64,000 nt of DNA from an uncultured Bacteroidales bacterium. Lineage in GTDB: Bacteria > Bacteroidota > Bacteroidia > Bacteroidales > JAADJA01. The position numbers and the translations under genes were made by a program. Below the pieces are notes generated by a model. That model was not told where the DNA came from, searched no databases, and saw only the letters and a program-made list of their open reading frames with translations. The stretch's first letter is position 1; the number at the start of each line of letters is the position of its first letter. Of this stretch, positions 1 through 10,301 are shown piece after piece. The DNA lies in assembly GCA_964421215.1 (NCBI GenBank), contig CAYQWA010000014.1, forward strand, positions 29,270-93,269, written 5' to 3'.

Positions 1-465
1 TCCGGTTTCTTTATCAACCAGGTTAGGTTTCTTTCCAGCATAGTCCACATACATTTTATCTCCTGCTTTGTGCTGAATGTGCATCACTGGATTAGACCTT
101 TTACTCCATCTCTTATAGTGTTCATAAAAGCTGGTGGTTCTTATTCCATCCGGATGTTTTTGGATATACTCCTTCCACAGCAGATGAATGGTTATGCCTG
201 GTTTTTTAATTTCCTTCTCTACATGGGGAAAGAACTTGTACATGGTTTTAAACTTGTCACTGGGCTGCTTTTGAGGCTGGACCATGAACAATTTATCCAG
301 TTCAACATCACTTAGCTTACAAAGATCTTCAATGGAGGTATCCGTTTGCTGCGTGCGCAACAGGTACTTATTGACTGTATTGCGTGAAAGCTCAAGATAA
401 TTACTAATGAATAGCTTGCTTTTGCCTTGCAAATAAAGTTGTAATACTCTTCTTAATTTACTCAT
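1..465 (-). CDS. istA: IS21-family transposase IstA, N-terminal part (runs off the window edge)
   Basis: My own translation of the minus strand from ATG at 465-463 to position 1 has no stop: MSKLRRVLQLYLQGKSKLFISNYLELSRNTVNKYL (HTH) ... HPDGIRTTSFYEHYKRW ... HKAGDKMYVDYAGKK. This is the typical IstA layout. It is absent from the ORF track because it is open at the edge. The listed 70..315 + ORF is its antisense shadow. Confidence 0.8.
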   Translation of the reverse strand, partial: MSKLRRVLQLYLQGKSKLFISNYLELSRNTVNKYLLRTQQTDTSIEDLCKLSDVELDKLFMVQPQKQPSDKFKTMYKFFPHVEKEIKKPGITIHLLWKEYIQKHPDGIRTTSFYEHYKRWSKRSNPVMHIQHKAGDKMYVDYAGKKPNLVDKETG

Positions 466-558
466 AACTATTGTTTTGTTGGCCATAACTTCTACTGTTT
501 TAATCGATTAACAGCTCGAAGTTATGACTTCAATAGTTCAGTAAATCCTTTTTTTACG

Positions 559-678
559 GGTGCTCACTTTGCCCCGGAATGGGGTGCTCACTTTGGCGCG
601 GAATCAGGTGTTCAGTTTGCGGCGGAAAGTGGTGTTCACTTTCACACGGAATTAGGTGCTCAGTTTAGGCGGAATTTC
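559..678. repeat. 5 x 24-bp tandem direct repeats (GGTGYTCASTTT..GGAAT), probable multiple transposase-binding repeats of the IS21 end
   Basis: Units start at 559, 583, 607, 631 and 655 with an exact 24-bp period: ggtgctcactttgccccggaatgg / ggtgctcactttggcgcggaatca / ggtgttcagtttgcggcggaaagt / ggtgttcactttcacacggaatta / ggtgctcagtttaggcggaatttc. They are contiguous with no spacers. Confidence 0.85.
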
Positions 679-1003
679 CAGAAAACCACTAGAAAAAAAA
701 TTATAGGATTGCAATCTTTGATTTAGGTGTGATTCACAAATTTACTTTCCTGAAGTGATCTGGAGGTAATTGTTAAACATAAAGTAAAGTAACTTTAACT
801 GAAATTCTTTTGGTTTATAGATATTTGTTCTACTTAATAGGCATAAATAACCCAAAACATTTTAAGAGTAGTTTTTGGCACAAGCTTGTAACAGGCACAA
901 GTCACCGAACTAAGATTAGCTTTTGATTTGCATGAGTTAGTACTTTTATGTATACCCCCCTTTTTATCTATTTTTCCAGGCCTTGTTTGAAGATAATTAT
1001 ATT

Positions 1004-2503
1004 TTAATTCTTAATGAACTTTCCAGTCCAAAAAACACGATTTGAATGAATATACTGAAGGTAAAACATTCCATTTGGATAACTAGAAACATTAACCTGT
1101 ATACTTTCTGAATTCATAGGCACATTAATTTCTTCAACTTTAACTCCTTGTAAATTATAAATTCTAAAGCACTTATCTCCTTCAACAGAGAGTTCTGAAC
1201 CTTGTATAAAGAATTCTCCTCTTGTAGGATTTGGCCAAACCTTTAGTTCTTTTCCTTCCATTTGAGTTAGTTCAAAAACCTGTACCCCAGTTGCACACCC
1301 CGGTGTATCACAGCCCATGCTGTCTAACTTTATGATCCACATGTTGGCGTGAGTTGAAGTTTCATTTGCCTGGCCGATGGCAATATATCCATTGTCACTA
1401 GTTATTGATACATCATTAAGGTAATTTACATCCCACAAATTAGAAAAATAATAATAGTCATGGATCCAAACACTGTCCAAATTATTATCCAATTTTAAAG
1501 ACCAACCAGTAAAATTTGCCGAAGCTACGGAATCTGTAATATAGGAAAAACCAGTGCACATATAACCGCTATTTATTTTTTTAAAGTTTTTAATGTACCT
1601 ATCAAGCCTGACATCTCCATATTTTCTTTCCTCAATAATATTGCCAACTGAATCAATATTATATATCACAAACTTCCCAATTCTATTATCTGAAGAATAT
1701 ATATATTCACCGTAAATCATTGCGATTAAGTAATTCCCGTCATCTGCCAATTCAACAAAAGCCATATCATCATCTACTTCAGGATTGCCATAATAATGAG
1801 TCCATTGTTCGTTTCCTAAGCTGTCAGTTTTTACTACCATAGCATCCAGCGAGTGATCAATTCCTGGTTTCCAGAAATAGCCACCTATCAAGTATCCACC
1901 ATCTGGTGTTTGGATTACATTCTGACCATGTTCAGCCCACTCATCACCATAGGTCTGGTGCCACAGATAATTTCCATTTTCATCTGTTTTTAATAATATG
2001 GCATCAGAATAGCTTGATTCATCATACCAAACCCATCCCGTTAATAGAAACCCGTCCTGGACTTCTGTAGCATTTATAATTACATTATTATATTCCGGTG
2101 AGTAATATTGAGTCCAGATTGTATCAAGGTCTGTATCCAATTTCATTAATCGGCCATAAGAAACTCCACTTATTGATAAATGATAACCAATACAATAATT
2201 ACTATCCGACATTAACTTCATAGCACCACCGACATTTCCAGGATAATAATTATGATTTGGTTCGTCTAAAATTTTCCAATTCAGTATCTCCCCATAATAA
2301 TTCATTTTAAAGAAAACAAGTCGCTGTGGACTAGTTATATCCCAGATAGATGCATATCCGACGTACTCCTGCCCGTTGTCAATTATTGAAAATCCCTCAA
2401 TACCTAAGATGCTATCAGAATAAATCTCATTAAAGTATATTGGTTCTTGTGCAGATAACAATATTGAACAATAGAATAAAATTGTAATAAGAATGATCTT
2501 CAT
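1004..2503 (-). CDS. Secreted beta-propeller-like repeat protein with T9SS type-A C-terminal sorting domain
   Basis: 499-aa ORF with a signal peptide (MKIILITILFYCSILLSAQ). It has repeated D-G-G-Y-L-I-G-G / DNGYIAIGQ-type units. The C-terminus, KVWPNPTRGEFFIQ...GMFYLQY...GKFIKN, is typical of Por/T9SS CTDs. Confidence 0.75.
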   Translation of the reverse strand: MKIILITILFYCSILLSAQEPIYFNEIYSDSILGIEGFSIIDNGQEYVGYASIWDITSPQRLVFFKMNYYGEILNWKILDEPNHNYYPGNVGGAMKLMSDSNYCIGYHLSISGVSYGRLMKLDTDLDTIWTQYYSPEYNNVIINATEVQDGFLLTGWVWYDESSYSDAILLKTDENGNYLWHQTYGDEWAEHGQNVIQTPDGGYLIGGYFWKPGIDHSLDAMVVKTDSLGNEQWTHYYGNPEVDDDMAFVELADDGNYLIAMIYGEYIYSSDNRIGKFVIYNIDSVGNIIEERKYGDVRLDRYIKNFKKINSGYMCTGFSYITDSVASANFTGWSLKLDNNLDSVWIHDYYYFSNLWDVNYLNDVSITSDNGYIAIGQANETSTHANMWIIKLDSMGCDTPGCATGVQVFELTQMEGKELKVWPNPTRGEFFIQGSELSVEGDKCFRIYNLQGVKVEEINVPMNSESIQVNVSSYPNGMFYLQYIHSNRVFWTGKFIKN

Positions 2504-2521
2504 ATTACAAATATAATAAAG

Positions 2522-2549
2522 GAAACCGGATTTTCAATAATCCGGTTTC
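2522..2549 (-). terminator. Intergenic stem-loop between the two T9SS cargo genes
   Basis: A perfect 10-bp stem GAAACCGGAT / ATCCGGTTTC with an 8-nt loop. On the minus strand it is followed by CTTTATTATATTTG, which is T-rich and also contains TATATTTG, a TAnnTTTG-like -7 box just upstream of the 2503 start. Confidence 0.55.
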
Positions 2550-2560
2550 TTTAATAAATA

Positions 2561-5500
2561 TTATCTCTTTATAGTTGCCTTTTCCACACCAATTGTCTTT
2601 CCCCCGCAATAAGTTCGAATAAGATATACCCCAGTTGGGATATCTTTCACTGAAAGTATCTGCTGTTGTTTTTGCCCATCTATATTAAAGGTTTTAATTT
2701 GCCTTCCCTGGATATCATAAATATCAACTCTTGCACCTTCCACATTACCTATCAACAAATCGATGACTATATATTCATCAGCAGGATTTGGATAAATATT
2801 TACTTTAGAAAAGGATTTGGGGGCTACCTTCTTTGTTTCATTAATAGAGTTTGACTTCATCCCATCATCTGGCATCAGTACCGGTTCTGAATAATCATAC
2901 TCACCAAGATGTACCAGTATGTTCCTAGAATAAGCAGCTGCATTTGTTTGATTATTATCAGCCATTTCTATCAGGATTTCTTTCTGGATTTCAGTCAAAC
3001 CATAAATACCAGTATCGGCTATGTGTAGTTCTTCCACAACTTCGAGGTAATTTATCAAATCGTCATAGAAATTCTGCTGCTGTCCATCCAAAATATATTG
3101 AGTCGGTATCATACCAAATACATCCATAGCTTCTGTAAATTGATTATTCTTTATATAGCTAAAAACCAATTCATACTTTTCGTGTAATCCTGCCTCTTCT
3201 TCAAGTAATACTATTAGGCTGTCAAAACTATTTACATTTATGGTATCAGCAAGGTAGTAACGTTTTAGATTGTTTAAGGCCATTGCACGTTTATGATTAT
3301 ACATCCCTCTCTGAGCTTCCAGTTTTTCCTTGGCTGCCACCATATATTTACCTAACAAAATTTCAGCAAGCATCTCTTGCGTAAAAGGTTGAGATTTTTC
3401 TTCAACCTTATCCATCACTTCTTGTGATTTTGCTGATTGGGGATTGGCAACAAGGATGTCTTTGATCAGTACATTTGGCAATACATCTTCTTTCTCAAGA
3501 GCAGCTATCAAAACCGAGTCACTCAAGTAAGGTGATTTGTTCGATAAACTCATATAAACTTCATAGGCTTCAGGAGGCATACTTTGCAATACTTGCTGCT
3601 CTAACAAAACAGTATTTCCACCATCAATAAGTTCCAAAAATATACTTTGAACACTGTCTGCCGCAATTTTATTCTCTGCCATTCCTTCACGATGATCACC
3701 CCCAGCGCTTCCTCCACTTTCCCCGGAAATACCAGATGGACAACTTTGTGTCTTTTCATAAAATGTACCTTCATTTTCTAGAATAATAAATGGTTCGGGG
3801 GAACGATACTCCGGGACGATATTTACTGGTTCATGAAAATGATGATAATATGTTATCTGTGCATCTAAAAGGTCAATGTTTTCGTAATCGCTAAATTCAG
3901 GACCTACTAGGGGAAAAGTATTATGCAAGCTAAATGTATTACCAGCTTGCATGTCCGTTGCGCCTGGAGCTCCTTGATTATATGAAATTCCTGGCAGAAC
4001 ACATCCCGGTTCTGCCGTTACATATATATCCCTATTGTTCATCACATAGTTGTTACATCGTATTTTTAATCCATCTTGTTGTAAAATACTCCTATTGCAA
4101 TTTTGAGCAGATGTACCAATACGTAGTTTTTCAAAGTAGTTGTTGTATATCTCATTCATTGGTTCACGAGAATCGTTAATGATTATACCTATACCCCAAT
4201 ACTGAGCTCCATAAACATTAATAAATTCATTATCTTCAACATGGTAACCGGTAGAAGAATCGAGATATAAACCCCAGGAATCCACCGGGCTGTCTTTATA
4301 GAAAAAGAATTCATTGCTTGTGATTCTTGCATTAGATAGCGAACCGCAATAAATCCCATAATACGTATCATTAATTTTGGTATGTCTTATATCCGTATAA
4401 TATATGGAAGAACTAGCTGTTGAATAGATCCCATAGTTTAGGTTGAAGAATTCACCATATTCCCATTCTTCACAAGGATTTCCTCCAAGACAAAGCCCAT
4501 CTACAAAGAAAGTAGAATTAAAACTTTTAATACCTGTTCCATATTGGTAAATCTTGCTATTGTTAGAAAAATTATTTCCGTTTAATCTTACTTTATCGAT
4601 TTCACGCATTGAAATGAAGGTAACTTCACCTTGTTCTATAGGGTAATTGATATCTATCGTAAAATCACTTGAATATATAAAATTCCCACTTTCATATGAA
4701 AATCCTGCGGCCGGATATCTATAAAATAGGATACTGTTAAAGTTATTATGAAAGTCTGCATTTACAATATTGACTATACCTCCTGAGTATTTAAGATCTA
4801 CAAACTCGATTTCTTCTTGTCCACTACCATCCACCTTAACAGTTCTAATACCATATTTAGCCATTTCAATACGGCCTTCATTTCGAATTATTACCTTTCC
4901 CTGGTTAGGAAAGGTATGAGCTTTAGTTGGATCGCCCCAAACCTGAATGCCTTGCCACATCCCTGCACACTCATTGCTTATTGTTCCTCCATCAATAACA
5001 AGTAAGCCACCTCTTTTAACTTTTATACTTCTACCTTCACCCATGAATAATGTACCAGTAATATTTAAAACACCGCCTGAATTAATCACTATATCTGAAT
5101 AAGCATGGTGCTCCAACTCATAATTTACTACACCTTCAATAATCTCAGGTACCGGATTATAATTACATGGTAGATCTGCTTCCCAAACTCCACGTCCAAA
5201 GGTTCCGACAGCAATGGTTTTTTTGCCAGAATTGATTTCAAGATCCCTAATTGGAACATGTGGAAGGTTTCCGCTAACGTTTTCGAATTCTACCAGGTTT
5301 TCATTGATATAGAAAAGTCCGTAGTTCGTTCCTACGTAAAGAGATTTATCTGAACTTCCATTTACAAATCCCAATGCATAAATTTTGTAGCTTTGATTGG
5401 CTGGGAAATTATTATATTCAGTCCAAATTGGAGTTCCTGAATTCTCACTATTGCAGAAATAGATATAATTTTCCTGAGCAACATAAAAATGGTCCGGATT

Positions 5501-7714
5501 ATCATAATCAATGGCAATATCCGTCATCCAACCAGTTGTACCCTCAAATGCTCCTAAGTCAACCCAATCATTTGCTCCGGTTCCACCCCCCGTATTGGAT
5601 TTAAACACTCTTAATGGTATAGTGGGTTCATCTCCCTTGCCTCCTCTCCAAATGACGTAAATAATGTTCGGATTAGTTTCACTAATTTCGATTCTCCACG
5701 TTGATGGATCATCCCATTCTGTATTGTCAACAATTTCAATTTGATTTTCAAACCTTTCCCACCTTTCCCATTCACCATTAACGAATTTTTTAAGTCCCCA
5801 TTTCTTAGTATTCCAATTATTTGTATTTTCTCGTTTTAATTCATTCCCACAAACCAAGATTTCAGATGGATTCCCAGGATTAATAGTAAAATATGTTCTC
5901 CAATTCGGAACATTTTCTGGTTTAGGTGTGAAAAAGGAAAAGTTTTCACCTCCATCTTCGGAATATCTACAGGAAAAATGCTGAGCAGTAACATACATAT
6001 TTTGTCCAGTGGTATTGTCCATATCCGGTTTAAAACCATCACCACTTTGAACATGTCTTTCTGCCCAGGTTTTGTCTTCTCTCAATTCATAGATGTTTGA
6101 TCCATTATCATGTTGACCACTTAATAAAACATTCCTATTCTCTTTAGAAGTGGCAATATCATAAACTGTAGCTACAGCAAGACCATTGTTCATCTCCTGC
6201 CAATCATAATTTTCTGAGGGATTTGTATGGTCAAGAACAGTTTTATAAACACCCCCGTCATTTCCTACCCATAAAACGAGATCTTCACCTTCCGTCACTA
6301 TTTCCATGAAGTGTTGATCAACATGGATTTCCATATCGAAATAGTGTTCAGCAGTTATAAGACTCCAAGTACAAAATCCCTCATCCAACAAGTCGGAAGC
6401 CGCATAAATCGGTGCAGTGTTTCCGTGTACCATCCATAATTTTTCACCCACTTTCATTGGTGCAATTGCCCACCCTAAACCACGTTCAGGATTTACACCG
6501 GCATTACAAACGGTGGCTCCTTCTTGAATAGGTAAAGCACCTTTATCTACATAAACATCATTTACAAGGTCATATCTAAATAATCTACTATTCCAATCAT
6601 TATTTAGCTCCGGATCCCACATCATGTTAAAACTAACGACGATAAATAGATATTCAGGAGCAGCTGGAGAAAATTCGATTGTAATTCGTCGATTAGAGGT
6701 GTTATCCGTTGGATCGGGTAGAAAATCAAGATTTGGCAGAAAATTACATTCAGTTGGATTCGCCTGATAATCTATAACCCTAACCGAAGTAGAGCCAGTA
6801 CCGGATGCATAGATTAGGTTGGTCGATGGATCCGGATGCACCTCAATGTCATAAAAATTTCCTGAACATACTTCTTCCCAAACTGGAAATGGCACTAATG
6901 CATCTTCACATTCATAGAGACCTTTGTTCGTTACAACAAATAAATGTACTTTTCCGGGATCAGTAGGAATCGAGATTATTTTTCGCATTTGATGTATCTT
7001 ATTCCCTCCTAATGTCTCGTTTAATCCGATATATTCCCAATCCTCTCCCCCATTTGTGGTTCTCCATACACCAATAGCATTTTGCCACCATAAATGGCCA
7101 GGCATACCTTCTGCACAACCAGTTGTAATGAACCAATTGTCATCGGGATTATGTTCATCAATTGCGATAGATGAAACACCAGAAATCGGTAACTCCAGGT
7201 CTGTTCCACCATTTGTCCAGGACTCTCCACCATTATCTGATACAAATAAGCCGCCAGCTGGGGAGCATGCAAACATTTTGCTATTTATTGGTGGGGCATA
7301 TCTCGGATCAAATTCAATGTAATGTATTTGACCAAGACCTTTAATACTATTTTCATTATTGCCAGGATTCATCTGATAACCATCTTCAGGCATCCTATCG
7401 GGACCAATTAGTTTCCAGTCTAGTACATCACTTGTGTTATCACCATTTTCGATAAATTCGTTCAGATAGTTAGAAACTCCATTGTACCATATTGAAAAGT
7501 CACCATGTGGATACAACTTAGGTTCCCAATAATCTGCTTTTCTCATATATGGATTGTAACCTGTTCCTTGCATACTGTCTAAACCTCTAATCTCGATTAT
7601 AGAATCAAAATAAGTATCCCATGTGGCTTTGATTGTATAAAAATTAGAAGTGTCTTGGGAATATCCAACTGAAAGCAAGACACCAAGGAGAATTGATAAA
7701 ATAGTTTTTTTCAT
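2561..7714 (-). CDS. Giant secreted multidomain protein: BNR/Asp-box propeller region + right-handed beta-helix-like region + helical region + T9SS CTD
   Basis: 1717-aa ORF with a signal peptide (MKKTILSILLGVLLSVGYSQ). Asp-box-like motifs: SDNGGESW, TTNGGEDW, GNDGGVYKT, SEDGGENF. The middle part is G/N/I-rich beta-helix-like repeats. The C-terminus, VNIYPNPADEYIVIDL...GVYLIRT...KATIKR, is a T9SS CTD. Confidence 0.75.
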   Translation of the reverse strand: MKKTILSILLGVLLSVGYSQDTSNFYTIKATWDTYFDSIIEIRGLDSMQGTGYNPYMRKADYWEPKLYPHGDFSIWYNGVSNYLNEFIENGDNTSDVLDWKLIGPDRMPEDGYQMNPGNNENSIKGLGQIHYIEFDPRYAPPINSKMFACSPAGGLFVSDNGGESWTNGGTDLELPISGVSSIAIDEHNPDDNWFITTGCAEGMPGHLWWQNAIGVWRTTNGGEDWEYIGLNETLGGNKIHQMRKIISIPTDPGKVHLFVVTNKGLYECEDALVPFPVWEEVCSGNFYDIEVHPDPSTNLIYASGTGSTSVRVIDYQANPTECNFLPNLDFLPDPTDNTSNRRITIEFSPAAPEYLFIVVSFNMMWDPELNNDWNSRLFRYDLVNDVYVDKGALPIQEGATVCNAGVNPERGLGWAIAPMKVGEKLWMVHGNTAPIYAASDLLDEGFCTWSLITAEHYFDMEIHVDQHFMEIVTEGEDLVLWVGNDGGVYKTVLDHTNPSENYDWQEMNNGLAVATVYDIATSKENRNVLLSGQHDNGSNIYELREDKTWAERHVQSGDGFKPDMDNTTGQNMYVTAQHFSCRYSEDGGENFSFFTPKPENVPNWRTYFTINPGNPSEILVCGNELKRENTNNWNTKKWGLKKFVNGEWERWERFENQIEIVDNTEWDDPSTWRIEISETNPNIIYVIWRGGKGDEPTIPLRVFKSNTGGGTGANDWVDLGAFEGTTGWMTDIAIDYDNPDHFYVAQENYIYFCNSENSGTPIWTEYNNFPANQSYKIYALGFVNGSSDKSLYVGTNYGLFYINENLVEFENVSGNLPHVPIRDLEINSGKKTIAVGTFGRGVWEADLPCNYNPVPEIIEGVVNYELEHHAYSDIVINSGGVLNITGTLFMGEGRSIKVKRGGLLVIDGGTISNECAGMWQGIQVWGDPTKAHTFPNQGKVIIRNEGRIEMAKYGIRTVKVDGSGQEEIEFVDLKYSGGIVNIVNADFHNNFNSILFYRYPAAGFSYESGNFIYSSDFTIDINYPIEQGEVTFISMREIDKVRLNGNNFSNNSKIYQYGTGIKSFNSTFFVDGLCLGGNPCEEWEYGEFFNLNYGIYSTASSSIYYTDIRHTKINDTYYGIYCGSLSNARITSNEFFFYKDSPVDSWGLYLDSSTGYHVEDNEFINVYGAQYWGIGIIINDSREPMNEIYNNYFEKLRIGTSAQNCNRSILQQDGLKIRCNNYVMNNRDIYVTAEPGCVLPGISYNQGAPGATDMQAGNTFSLHNTFPLVGPEFSDYENIDLLDAQITYYHHFHEPVNIVPEYRSPEPFIILENEGTFYEKTQSCPSGISGESGGSAGGDHREGMAENKIAADSVQSIFLELIDGGNTVLLEQQVLQSMPPEAYEVYMSLSNKSPYLSDSVLIAALEKEDVLPNVLIKDILVANPQSAKSQEVMDKVEEKSQPFTQEMLAEILLGKYMVAAKEKLEAQRGMYNHKRAMALNNLKRYYLADTINVNSFDSLIVLLEEEAGLHEKYELVFSYIKNNQFTEAMDVFGMIPTQYILDGQQQNFYDDLINYLEVVEELHIADTGIYGLTEIQKEILIEMADNNQTNAAAYSRNILVHLGEYDYSEPVLMPDDGMKSNSINETKKVAPKSFSKVNIYPNPADEYIVIDLLIGNVEGARVDIYDIQGRQIKTFNIDGQKQQQILSVKDIPTGVYLIRTYCGGKTIGVEKATIKR

Positions 7715-8135
7715 TTTTTTGGTTTTGATGATTTATATATAATCTGAATTTCTCTTCAGACTTCTTCTAATGAATAAATTGTGATCTATTAATTAAGAGA
7801 CACCTCCTTTCTTCAAGATATTTATTACGCAAAAAATATAGGTTCTAAATATTTGCAAAGTTTAGTAGAAAATGGAAATACTGCTATATCCATTTATTCC
7901 ATACAATAGTCGAATACGTTTAACTATTATTTATTGTTAGATTCTTATTGTTTTTAAGAACTTTAAGTTTATTTTTTTGGGGGTATAAATCTACTATACC
8001 CATAATTAAAAGTCAATCCCTGAAAACCACCAAAATTTTTCATAGCTGAAAACCACTAGATAAGATATATGGGATTAAAAATTAACCATCTACAAAAGGT
8101 GGTTTGTTAGCCCAAATATTTGAGCATTTTGAATA

Positions 8136-8151
8136 CTTGTTTATAAACAAG
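8136..8151. repeat. 16-bp perfect palindrome CTTGTTTATAAACAAG
   Basis: Read directly from the sequence; it is its own reverse complement. It lies in the ORF-free 7715-8573 region, 19 bp from the tandem GTGTATCAAAT repeat. Confidence 0.8.
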
Positions 8152-8169
8152 GTAGATGGAAATATAAAT

Positions 8170-8192
8170 GTGTATCAAATCGTGTATCAAAT
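8170..8192. repeat. Tandem direct repeat GTGTATCAAAT x2 (12-bp period)
   Basis: gtgtatcaaat c gtgtatcaaat occupies 8170-8192. It resembles, in inverted orientation, the tandem TTAGTACACA x2 at 9730-9750. Confidence 0.75.
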
Positions 8193-8227
8193 AAAAAGCA
8201 GTTACATTTCAGATAAACATAACTGCT
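8189..8227 (-). terminator. Rho-independent terminator immediately after the tRNA-Ala 3' fragment
   Basis: Minus strand: AGCAGTTA-(15 nt)-TAACTGCT followed by TTTTTATTT, starting 12 nt after the tRNA fragment's discriminator base. Confidence 0.6.
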
Positions 8228-8239
8228 AGATTTTCTGTG

Positions 8240-8286
8240 TGGAGCATATCGGAGTCGAACCGATGACCTCTTGACTGCCAGCCAAG
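8240..8286 (-). pseudogene. Orphan 3' half of a tRNA, anticodon GGC (Ala-like); the 5' half is absent
   Basis: Minus strand: CTTGG-CTGGCAG-TCAAG (anticodon arm, anticodon GGC), AGGTC (variable loop), ATCGG-TTCGACT-CCGAT (T arm), ATGCTCC-A (acceptor 3' strand plus discriminator). U at position 70 would allow the G3:U70 Ala identity pair. The upstream sequence has no D arm or matching 5' acceptor strand. Confidence 0.7.
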
Positions 8287-8573
8287 TTAAAGAGGAGAAA
8301 ATGAATGAAAAGCGCAGAAATTGTAGCAGAATCTTATAGAATCCTAGTTGTTGTTTTAAAATGAATCTGATTATCCTATTGGAAAGACTTTTGTATTGAG
8401 TGATTTTTATAGTGTAGTAGGAGTTTACTGTGGTCCTGATAATTGCTTTAATATGACATCTAGTTCACCTCAATCTAAAAACAACTGTTTAATAAATTTC
8501 CAAAACCACAATGATAGCGTGTTGGAGTGATAAATGTATTATCACAGAATGATTACTAAAACGTAGTTTTAGT

Positions 8574-9719
8574 TTATTTACCCCACTTTTCCATCTCCGA
8601 GTTTAAATAATCCATCTCATATTTTGTGTAGATCTTCGTTGTTTTGATATCAGTATGGCCAAGGATCTTGCTGATCACATCATAATCAATTCCCATTGAC
8701 TTTGAAATAGTCGCAAAAGTGTGCCTGGCACAGTGAAAGCTAATTTTCTTGTTTATTTTGACTTCTTTGATAATATCCTTTAAGTAACGGTTTGTTGGTT
8801 GATCAGTTAAAACATTAAATACAGGTTGATATTCAAATCCTTTCTCCGGAACAAGGTTCTTCGCTTTCTTTGTTAATGGGATATTTACGAACTCTTTTGT
8901 TTTTCCCATTTGTATTGAAATTAAACTTCCTTCTTTGATGTCTTTGAATCGGAGATTTTTAACATCCTGGTATCGAAGTCCGGTATAACAGCTAAACAAA
9001 AAGTATTTCAACACATTTTGCCTGTTTTTCTTTAAAGTTTCTTTCGAATATAACTCTTCCAGTTTACGAAGCTCTTCTACGGAAAGAAATTCACGTTCTC
9101 CAACTATTCTTTTGAGCTTATAGTCATGAATTGGGTTTTCTTCGATAATATTTTGTGCAACAGCTTTGTTTAAGATTTGTTTGATGAAGATTATTGACTT
9201 GACAACTGTGTTTTTATTATTGTTTCGTGTATTGATAAGGTATTGCTCATATCTATAAATAAATCGTAAGTCAATTTCTGAGAATGACAAATCCGATTTG
9301 AATTCTCTCATTTTATTAACCTGATCATTATAGTTTTTGAGGGTTCCTTTGGTTAGCTTTCCATCTAAAAGCTGTATCTGGTCTTGTACAAATTCATAAA
9401 AGGAATCTTTGTTTATATGGTTGGATTCAAATTCCTGCCTAAACCTATCAAAGGTTATTAATTGGTCGGTGATCCGGAAAGTATGAATTATCTTTTGTGC
9501 TTTTAGCCTATAGTGTTCTATTAGGTTGTTTTTATCATCATGATATGGATCTGCCTTAGATATGATTCCTGATTTGAAATGATTGGGATTTGCATAAATA
9601 TTTAATCGAAAATATTTATGTCTTCGATCAATAGTAATTCTAAGAAATATATTCCTGGTTTTGTCCTTCCTGGTATAATCCTTTTGGACAACATTAATTG
9701 TACAATTTGTTTTTGACAT
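8574..9719 (-). CDS. Tyrosine site-specific recombinase (phage-integrase family, Bacteroidota type with N-terminal arm-binding and SAM-like domains)
   Basis: 381-aa ORF. Catalytic signature: YTGLRYQD (Arg), HCARHTFAT (His-x-x-Arg), LGHTDIKTTKIYTKY (His ... Tyr nucleophile). It lies 132 bp from the tRNA-Cys 3' end in the same orientation. Confidence 0.9.
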   Translation of the reverse strand: MSKTNCTINVVQKDYTRKDKTRNIFLRITIDRRHKYFRLNIYANPNHFKSGIISKADPYHDDKNNLIEHYRLKAQKIIHTFRITDQLITFDRFRQEFESNHINKDSFYEFVQDQIQLLDGKLTKGTLKNYNDQVNKMREFKSDLSFSEIDLRFIYRYEQYLINTRNNNKNTVVKSIIFIKQILNKAVAQNIIEENPIHDYKLKRIVGEREFLSVEELRKLEELYSKETLKKNRQNVLKYFLFSCYTGLRYQDVKNLRFKDIKEGSLISIQMGKTKEFVNIPLTKKAKNLVPEKGFEYQPVFNVLTDQPTNRYLKDIIKEVKINKKISFHCARHTFATISKSMGIDYDVISKILGHTDIKTTKIYTKYEMDYLNSEMEKWGK

Positions 9720-9729
9720 TGCTTAAAAA

Positions 9730-9750
9730 TTAGTACACAATTAGTACACA
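9730..9750. repeat. Tandem direct repeat TTAGTACACA x2 (11-bp period) directly upstream of the integrase start
   Basis: ttagtacaca a ttagtacaca occupies 9730-9750, 11 nt from the integrase ATG (9719). On the minus strand it reads AAATGTGTACTAATTGTGTACTAAT. Confidence 0.75.
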
Positions 9751-9811
9751 TTTTGCCAAAAACATTGAAATCTGGAGCTTCAATTATTAGACTTATCCTT
9801 TGCTATAAGCC

Positions 9812-9843
9812 AAAAAATGAGACAATTGTTTCAAAATTGCCTC
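9812..9843 (-). terminator. Rho-independent terminator of tRNA-Cys
   Basis: Minus strand: GAGGCAATT-TTGAAAC-AATTGTCTC (9-bp stem, one G.U pair) followed by ATTTTTT, 8 nt after the tRNA 3' end. Confidence 0.7.
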
Positions 9844-9851
9844 ATTCTCAG

Positions 9852-9923
9852 AGGTCTCGAGCGGATTCGAACCGCTGTAAATGGTTTTGCAGACCACCGC
9901 CTAAGCCACTCGGCCACGAGACC
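9852..9923 (-). tRNA. tRNA-Cys (anticodon GCA)
   Basis: Minus strand: GGTCTCG TG GCC-GAGTGGCTTA-GGC G GTGGT-CTGCAAA-ACCAT TTAC AGCGG-TTCGAAT-CCGCT CGAGACC T. This gives a full 72-nt cloverleaf with anticodon GCA and U73 discriminator (a Cys identity element). CCA is not encoded. Confidence 0.9.
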
Positions 9924-10013: not shown

Positions 10014-10040
10014 GGCCTAGCGGTTTGTAACCGATTAGCC
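10014..10040. repeat. 27-bp near-palindromic element, copy 1 (GGCCTAGCGGTTTGTAACCGATTAGCC)
   Basis: An imperfect palindrome that overlaps the stop codon (10035-10037) of the CWC gene. It is 23/27 identical to copy 2 at 10228-10254. Confidence 0.7.
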
Positions 10041-10301
10041 GTTAATCTGATACCGTGTATATTCTCTCAAACAATCAGGGCATAAACATCCATCAAATTC
10101 CTGCTGGAGCTGCTCCATAGTATCTGCCGGAACATCGTATTCGAAACACCAGCATTTGGAGGAGGTGGAGCAATGGAATTCGTTTCCGCATTTGGGGCAT
10201 TTGCTGTGTTCAACGATCCTACCGATTGGCTTAGCGGTTTTAAACCGCTTAGCCGATGCACCTTTCGAATCGGCTTGCTGGTTATTATTACGATCACTCA
10301 T
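10035..10301 (-). CDS. Cysteine-rich CWC-type small protein
   Basis: The ORF track gives 10035..10316. The likely start is the ATG at 10301 (MSDRNNNQQ...). Cys pattern: KCPKCGNEFHCS...KCWCFEY...GCLCPDCL. The start overlaps the folB stop by 8 nt (ATGAGTGA). Confidence 0.6.
   Translation of the reverse strand: MSDRNNNQQADSKGASAKRFKTAKPIGRIVEHSKCPKCGNEFHCSTSSKCWCFEYDVPADTMEQLQQEFDGCLCPDCLREYTRYQING
10228..10254. repeat. 27-bp near-palindromic element, copy 2 (GGCTTAGCGGTTTTAAACCGCTTAGCC)
   Basis: 24 of 27 positions are self-complementary. It lies inside the CWC coding sequence, where it encodes ...SAKRFKTAKPIG.... Confidence 0.7.

Follow-up and report, generated by a model that had tools for sequence, protein, structure and literature searches.

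The 64,000-nucleotide (nt) window analyzed here, from contig CAYQWA010000014.1 (positions 29,270 to 93,269) of the uncultured Bacteroidales assembly GCA_964421215.1, carries on its minus strand an intact tRNA-Cys(GCA) gene, the gene of a 381-amino-acid (aa) tyrosine integrase, a gap of 287 nt, and an orphan 47-nt 3′ half of a tRNA-Ala(GGC) gene with a terminator. This arrangement, pointed out in an earlier note on the sequence, was confirmed by ARAGORN, Pfam, and a terminator scan. In this work, we examined the integrative island at whose left end these features lie and the place of the tRNA-Ala half within it. The window matches the ENA scaffold SUTE22-1_SAMN10231913 scaffold_317 at full identity and a JGI contig at 99.9%; for the island's right part, we relied on other contigs of the same samples, which are 97.8–100% identical to the window's scaffold where they overlap it. 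The best annotated protein match was to a metagenome-assembled genome of Bacteroidales. Compared contigs and loci carry L numbers, and positions are those of the window unless a contig is named. The features of the left end, in their order on the minus strand and with the evidence for each in brackets, are as follows.

9852–9923, minus strand: intact tRNA-Cys(GCA), the gene targeted by the island, on the side of its left attachment (att) site, attL (ARAGORN; Rfam, 63 bits; folB-(CWC)-tRNA-Cys linkage in the loci of 16 relatives)
9851–9863, minus strand: attL core CGCTCGAGACCTC, tRNA positions 62–73 plus one base (exact repeat at the right att site, attR; contig start at 9863; parallel in a tRNA-Phe island)
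9720–9850, minus strand: putative element-borne P′ arm, with a terminator hairpin at about 9813–9849 and a T-run, then the integrase leader (conserved with the integrase; fold)
9729–9750, minus strand: the 11-mer TGTGTACTAAT twice in tandem, directly ahead of the integrase start (motif scan)
8574–9719, minus strand: tyrosine integrase, 381 aa, of the Bacteroidota three-domain type, predicted to be specific for the 3′ end of tRNA-Cys (Pfam; homologs after tRNA-Cys)
8287–8573, no strand: non-coding gap of 287 nt within which the mosaic's integrase module and Ala block would meet (no open reading frame of ≥60 aa; no homology to the islands of relatives)
8240–8286, minus strand: orphan 3′ half of tRNA-Ala(GGC), positions 27–73, a probable relic att core of the anticodon-loop class (identity to intact genes; shared boundaries)
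8169–8239, minus strand: remainder of the block downstream of tRNA-Ala, with a spacer, the hairpin 8197–8227 and T-run, and two tandem copies of TTTGATACAC at 8170–8191 (homology; terminator scan; fold)

The tRNA-Cys gene is the sole tRNA that ARAGORN identified in the 64 kb (9851–9923, minus strand), and the Rfam tRNA model, which scores 63 bits at 9852–9923, has no other match at E ≤ 1 between 7000 and 11000. The integrase contains the Pfam domains Arm-DNA-bind_5, Phage_int_SAM_5, and Phage_integrase. Homologs with 57–90% aa identity lie directly after tRNA-Cys in five other loci.

L020, 57% aa identity: prophage-like, with a gene for a tail protein; preceded by the Cys-rich CWC gene also seen in the window
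L021, 90% aa identity: same gltX-folB-CWC context
L022, 89% aa identity: contig begins within tRNA-Cys
L177, 89% aa identity: gltX-folB context, with no CWC gene called
L178, 89% aa identity: short contig with tRNA-Cys, the integrase gene, and the insertion sequence (IS) IS1

A further homolog (62% aa identity) adjoins tRNA-Phe(GAA) in an 8-kb island (L023), which is ended by a 13–14-nt direct repeat of the last bases of that tRNA. The core of this integrase family is formed by 13–14 nt at the extreme 3′ end of the tRNA, and the partner of the window's integrase is apparently tRNA-Cys, not tRNA-Ala.

We found the other end of the island by extending the locus, via a protein of the downstream region, to L179, a JGI contig of the same sample. 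A second, exact copy of the 13-mer CGCTCGAGACCTC lies on the same strand at L179 15551–15563, outside the window and ~24.9 kb downstream. This attR junction is identical in five assemblies (the 13-mer is also present in L180–L184), and the 13-mer is preceded there by T instead of C61 of the tRNA. On its 3′ side, attR is followed by a hairpin and T-run (fold z −3.3), which we infer to be the original terminator of tRNA-Cys, and then by host-type genes for a flavodoxin and an epimerase. Just inside attR lie genes for a DUF5906/VapE-like primase-helicase and for two HTH proteins, one HTH_17-like (80 aa, excisionase-like) and one HTH_3, which share 70% and 33% identity, respectively, with the products of the distal genes of the tRNA-Phe island. 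Neither the window nor the adjoining 9 kb past its start was found to contain a second tRNA-Cys end. The island of ~24.9 kb, of which the window covers the left 9.9 kb, comprises the integrase gene, the Ala block, seven Por_Secre_tail genes broken by one IS21, and the replication/regulation module. It thus shows the signature used by Islander, namely, a tyrosine integrase gene inside, an intact tRNA gene at one end, and a 3′ fragment in the same orientation at the other end, with the two ends linked via overlapping contigs of the same samples. The flavodoxin/epimerase synteny was not found downstream of tRNA-Cys in the relatives, so that the empty site was reconstructed solely from attR and the hairpin and T-run behind it; a search intended for looking up the empty site did not return the exact flavodoxin protein.

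The sequence that directly follows tRNA-Cys belongs with the integrase. DNA homology between the window and three of the loci above (L021, L022, and L177) extends from the tRNA to position 8583, at the end of the integrase gene, with 84–85% identity, and within it the segment 9720–9850 is ~85% identical at the nt level alongside the integrase; gltX of those genomes is ~70% identical. The hairpin at about 9813–9849 folds at −16.1 kcal/mol (z = −3.3). The earlier note had taken this terminator for the tRNA gene's own, which did not hold: because it is conserved with the integrase in relatives, it appears to be element DNA. The tRNA-Cys transcript is now ended by this element-borne hairpin and T-run, and some of the 16 relatives have an apparently empty tRNA-Cys with a different terminator. 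The cargo joined to the att-integrase module differs by genome (Fic/AbiEii, IS1, a secreted protein, or, in the window, the Ala block). From these comparisons we conclude that the att-plus-integrase module probably moves horizontally and becomes joined to other cargo in each genome.

The two arms of the island have similar short repeats. With up to one mismatch in ~37 kb, TGTGTACTAAT was found only as the tandem pair at 9729–9750, as a tandem pair before attR (L179 15464–15485), and once at L179 14735, in the spacer between two HTH genes. The tandem 11-mers or their variants are placed directly before the integrase start codon at one end and 65–85 nt before attR at the other, and a like layout is present in L023 (the tRNA-Phe island), L095, and L020. 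These 11-mers are probably the arm-type binding sites of the arm-binding domain of the integrase.

The ends of assembled contigs provide a hint of mobility. Island-side contigs from three assemblies/assemblers all start exactly at 9863, and host-side Logan contigs stop at 9851; given the attR sequence, these breaks lie where the junctions of a circular form (attP) and of an emptied chromosome (attB) would fork the assembly graph, which suggests excision of the island as a circle. Speaking against this explanation of the breaks, contigs cross attR unbroken in the same samples. The predicted attP reads ...GTAAGAGTT / CGCTCGAGACCTC / TGAGAATGAGG..., and the predicted attB reads ...GGTTCGAATC / CGCTCGAGACCTC / AGAATAAATGAAATCCC...; the attP junction had no match in a viral contig collection. 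A smaller circle, consisting of a 1.6-kb integrase unit (9863 to 8239; Logan contig L006), was considered and rejected because larger-k contigs pass 8240 unbroken and L015 has no terminal overlap.

The tRNA-Ala half (8240–8286, minus strand) is unique in the window as a 47-mer and matched none of 100 shuffles. Direct reading gives, in order, GGC in an anticodon stem-loop, AGGTC as the variable loop, ATCGG/TTCGACT/CCGAT as the T arm, and ATGCTCC plus A as the 3′ strand of the acceptor stem. Its first five nt, CTTGG, are one base off the (C/T)TTGA of intact genes, and the anticodon stem, CTTGG/TCAAG around a 7-nt loop, is kept (likewise by direct reading). The sequence upstream is unrelated to the 5′ half (GGGGCATTAGCTCAG...) of intact tRNA-Ala genes, and, in agreement with the earlier note, neither ARAGORN nor Rfam (E ≤ 1) reported a complete tRNA at 8240–8310. 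The half is followed by a 13-bp hairpin (8227–8197) and T-run (−13.2 kcal/mol, z = −3.8). In the terminator scan, the stretch from the integrase to the cargo genes has no terminator other than that of the Ala block, which at most now serves to end the integrase transcript.

For comparison with other genomes, an exact-match search with the 42-mer 8240–8281 was run on GTDB species genomes. The 66 loci found, nearly all in Bacteroidales or other Bacteroidota, comprise 55 intact tRNA-Ala(GGC) genes according to ARAGORN, two that are cut by contig ends, and nine true orphans. The assignment of the piece to a real tRNA-Ala 3′ end is therefore upheld, with 42 nt identical to 55 intact genes. All nine orphans begin at tRNA positions about 29–32, like the window's piece, and six of them have a tyrosine integrase gene ~60–260 nt away on the opposite strand. 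These orphan-linked integrases have the same three-domain architecture and are only 21–27% identical to the window's integrase. Beyond the tRNA part, 8285–8169 is 85–90% identical to the block at intact (L080, L049, and L054) and orphan (L042 and L030) tRNA-Ala loci; the homology stops at one common point in all compared loci, with the same boundaries as among the other loci themselves. The Ala piece thus appears to be a full copy of an attachment block of ~120 nt, which starts at the anticodon stem-loop, reaches past the tRNA 3′ end, and includes the terminator and two tandem 10-mers. The crossover of the Ala-type elements is placed in the anticodon loop of tRNA-Ala(GGC). Two such crossover subsites, the anticodon loop ("A") and the T/acceptor junction ("J"), are separated by the Islander authors (PMC4383910).

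Two tandem 9–10-mers after the terminator of tRNA-Ala(GGC) were observed in many Bacteroidales loci (L080, L049, L054, L090, L093, L036, and L066). Their sequence varies by locus (TTTGATACAC, TTTACTAAC, and TTTGCAAGC) and their tandem arrangement is constant; they may represent an att arm or a feature of the host.

The tRNA-Ala half is very probably a relic att site of an element of the anticodon-loop class, carried as a passenger inside the ~24.9-kb tRNA-Cys island. The piece is internal to this island because both island ends are tRNA-Cys att sites. In the proposed mechanism, the integrase would recombine the 13-nt core CGCTCGAGACCTC, where the T stem of tRNA-Cys meets the acceptor stem, and integration would leave an intact tRNA-Cys with the element's hairpin (attL) and a copy of the 13-nt core ~24.9 kb away (attR). 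The Ala block would have entered the cargo region by illegitimate recombination, with the junction somewhere in the 287-nt gap. Three routes may be envisaged. First, an occupied tRNA-Ala junction may have been taken up along with the adjoining type IX secretion genes, as part of the chromosomal DNA on its right. Second, an older tRNA-Ala integrase module of the island may have been replaced by the tRNA-Cys module. Third, an Ala-type element may have inserted at a secondary site and lost its integrase later. The terminator-plus-repeat block also follows intact tRNA-Ala genes, with upstream genes syntenic among L080, L049, and L090, and because of this it looks like host-side sequence, which mildly favors the capture route. 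As the earlier note had proposed, the locus is a mosaic, in which the intact gene and the remnant stem from separate integration events. Its suggestion of an element-borne attP-type piece stood in part: the piece lies inside an island with tRNA-Cys att sites at both ends, but it is not the attP of the adjacent integrase, nor a substrate or product of that enzyme, because the family core is 13–14 nt at the 3′ end and the piece is the 47-nt, anticodon-loop type of other integrases.

Several observations weigh against this interpretation. The window's scaffold is joined to the attR contig by a 55-nt overlap and an IS21 overlap. The partner element is absent, with no Ala-type integrase elsewhere in the island by tblastn, and the island has no second Ala piece or intact tRNA-Ala. 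An intact tRNA-Ala(GGC) was not found in the 64-kb window and its 26-kb extension. The 42-nt tRNA sequence is perfect and the hairpin is intact; such preservation of the Ala block could mean a recent acquisition or some selection.

Further searches of the gap and the block were largely negative. In the gap, no remnant of an Ala-type integrase was found, and tblastn of the Ala-type integrases against 7600–8600 matched just the C-terminus of the resident integrase. The gap plus the Ala block had no match among phages, and its sole match among plasmids was 48 nt at 89.6% identity in the tRNA-half region (query 315–362) to a Flammeovirga replicon. The 42-mer and the arm repeat each had no match in the viral contig collection, and a 45-mer across the junction had none in a metagenome contig collection that apparently does not include the source samples. 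No backbone homology was found between the island and the Ala-type elements.

Beyond a passive relic, the Ala block might be evidence of a target switch, in which an Ala module was replaced by the Cys module, or might be a working internal landing pad, but we consider this unlikely. The replacement corresponds to the second route above. As a live landing pad, the orphan half could accept tRNA-Ala-targeting elements that would then ride with the island; the undamaged 42-nt tRNA part, the intact hairpin, and the near-perfect anticodon stem-loop, which has both core half-sites and is kept along with the downstream block, are in line with such a role. However, all six assemblies that cover the site lack an inserted Ala-type element there, and the preservation may reflect a recent acquisition, so that a live landing pad seems highly improbable.

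A chromosomal rearrangement (reciprocal recombination or a deletion) that joined the integrase end of a tRNA-Cys element to the displaced-fragment end of a tRNA-Ala element, with the DNA downstream of the Ala piece as the native tRNA-Ala neighborhood, would account for two tRNA pieces of different identity, for the end of the integrase-module homology at the stop codon, and for the lack of a tRNA-Cys repeat within the first 19 kb downstream. This scenario is very unlikely and is largely refuted by the presence of attR(Cys) 24.9 kb downstream, where the backbone genes in front of it have homologs at the distal end of the related island, which places the Ala piece in the interior. The recombination between a tRNA-Ala and a tRNA-Cys locus that the earlier note had proposed is not borne out either, as the island is complete from one att site to the other and the tRNA-Phe island has homologs of its distal genes. 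Since both ends are intact, a simple reciprocal tRNA-Cys/tRNA-Ala exchange is ruled out; an earlier illegitimate recombination must still have brought the Ala block in. In relatives that lack the integrase, the fragment was not seen. We also rejected an ancestral tRNA-Cys/tRNA-Ala tandem cut by the insertion. For the comparison of tRNA-Cys neighborhoods, we used the loci of 16 relatives that keep the folB-tRNA-Cys linkage, and none of the 16 has a tRNA-Ala downstream of tRNA-Cys. In L053, tRNA-Cys and tRNA-Ala are 5 kb apart in a non-syntenic context.

Mobile elements sometimes carry tRNA genes. A tRNA-Ala gene in or beside the cargo may thus have been truncated by a random deletion, which would make the piece a pseudogene rather than an att site and would fit the absence of a partner element. 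Yet, the left boundary, at tRNA position about 28–32, coincides with those of nine independent orphans, six of which adjoin an integrase gene, and the right boundary coincides with that of the shared ~120-nt block; a random deletion is not expected to give both boundaries, and there is little chance that this is what happened. The extremely improbable case of a second att site of the adjacent integrase, through dual specificity or as a decoy, draws on the distance of 287 nt, the same orientation, and the match of the Ala T arm to the tRNA-Cys T arm at 14 of 16 positions, but it conflicts with a family core in the last 13–14 nt of the tRNA, where Ala CCGATATGCTCCAC and Cys CCGCTCGAGACCTC agree at seven of 14 positions by direct comparison, with the lack of a TGTGTACTAAT arm motif flanking the Ala block, and with the islands of four relatives, which have ~85% identical integrase modules and no Ala piece.

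To the left of the Ala block, the window continues into the cargo of the island.

7715–8168, no strand: AT-rich non-coding stretch from the Ala block to the first cargo gene (GC content 0.28; no open reading frame of ≥60 aa; no homology found, including phage and plasmid collections)
1004–7714, minus strand: the first two cargo genes, for proteins of 1717 aa and 499 aa with Por_Secre_tail, the sorting domain of type IX secretion (Pfam; between attL and attR)
1–486, minus strand: start of an IS21-family element among the cargo genes, with istA here and istB beyond the window (gene calls of L001 and L014: Mu-transpos_C_2 and IstB_IS21)

The region 7715–8573 had been described as free of open reading frames of 60 aa or more, and indeed the longest ones there have 41 and 44 aa. 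The two cargo reading frames with Por_Secre_tail are 2561–7714 and 1004–2503, and homologs of their products were not found downstream of tRNA-Cys in the relatives. In total, seven genes with type IX secretion sorting domains (window 1–9863, L014, and L179, up to ~15 kb past the window start) represent an unusual cargo for a small integrative element. The JGI contigs break at the edge of the IS21. Between two assemblies of the same sample series, the cargo part is 97.8% identical and the remainder ~100%.

Some side observations concern the neighborhood of tRNA-Cys and the assemblies. A small gene for a Cys-rich CWC-domain protein (10035–10301, minus strand) lies between folB and tRNA-Cys, and this position is kept in L098, L099, L111, L021, and L020. 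In a distant relative (L139), a 15-nt direct repeat of the tRNA-Cys 3′ end is located ~95 nt downstream, just past the gene's terminator, and resembles a scar left by an element since lost from that site. Among the contigs that cover the integrase, the last 16 nt of L175 (ENA ERZ23498658 scaffold_35006) are the reverse complement of sequence 40 nt upstream; it was rejected as a true variant after the integrase stop codon and regarded as a fold-back assembly artifact. L176 (ENA ERZ23498668 scaffold_32029) matches the window exactly as far as 9015, within the integrase gene, beyond which come 104 nt of unrelated sequence; this could be a strain variant with a disrupted integrase gene or an assembly chimera.

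Compared with known systems, the island resembles those found by Islander/TIGER in having an intact tRNA-Cys at one end, a 13-nt 3′ fragment in the same orientation at the other end, an integrase gene by the tRNA, a size of 24.9 kb within their range of 2–200 kb, and a crossover at the "J" subsite (PMC4383910). In contrast to those islands, it holds a second tRNA gene fragment (Ala, "A" subsite) without a partner gene or integrase, and its cargo consists mainly of type IX secretion substrates. The mobilizable elements NBU1 and NBU2 of Bacteroides integrate at the 3′ end of tRNA-Leu and tRNA-Ser, respectively (PMC5704250). The window's integrase is likewise a Bacteroidota tyrosine integrase with a short core at the extreme tRNA 3′ end (PMC5704250), and the island likewise has a small excisionase-like HTH protein. 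The differences are that NBU1/NBU2 have their own relaxase (MobP) and origin of transfer, whereas the Pfam annotation of the island's called genes shows no relaxase family (an origin of transfer was not searched for), that the island has a DUF5906/VapE-like primase-helicase, and that its target is tRNA-Cys.

The tRNA-Phe(GAA) island in L023 (ENA ERZ27315617 k141_169131), an undescribed relative, shares with the window's island the integrase (62%), the HTH_17-like protein (70%), and the HTH_3 protein (33%), as well as the gene order (att, integrase, cargo, replication-type ATPase, excisionase-like protein, HTH_3, and att), the 13–14-nt direct repeat, and the tandem 11-mers in both arms. It differs in its target tRNA and cargo and has no internal foreign tRNA fragment or IS. 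The orphan tRNA-Ala(GGC) halves by integrases in metagenome-assembled genomes of Bacteroidales (L030, L042, L055, and L076) have the same 42-nt sequence and left boundary and an 85–90% identical block of terminator and tandem repeats. Those orphans have their own integrase 60–260 nt off on the opposite strand, whereas the window's copy has none and abuts the 3′ end of an integrase gene with unrelated specificity.

For annotation, these patterns imply that a tRNA fragment by an integrase need not mark the boundary of that integrase's island. The true boundary here is a 13-nt repeat 25 kb away, the 47-nt fragment belongs to another att class, and programs that map islands by pairing fragments with integrases could go wrong at such a locus. 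The island and the integrase clade appear to be undescribed; no new principle emerges, and the current view of tRNA-targeted integration is unchallenged. If a module replacement took place, the Ala block would be direct evidence of how islands change their tRNA targets; if it is a landing pad, tRNA-Ala-targeting elements would nest in, and travel with, a tRNA-Cys island bearing type IX secretion substrates. As it stands, the locus provides one more example of mosaic cargo in the islands of Bacteroidota, and a mobile island with several type IX secretion substrates in an uncultured marine lineage of this phylum.

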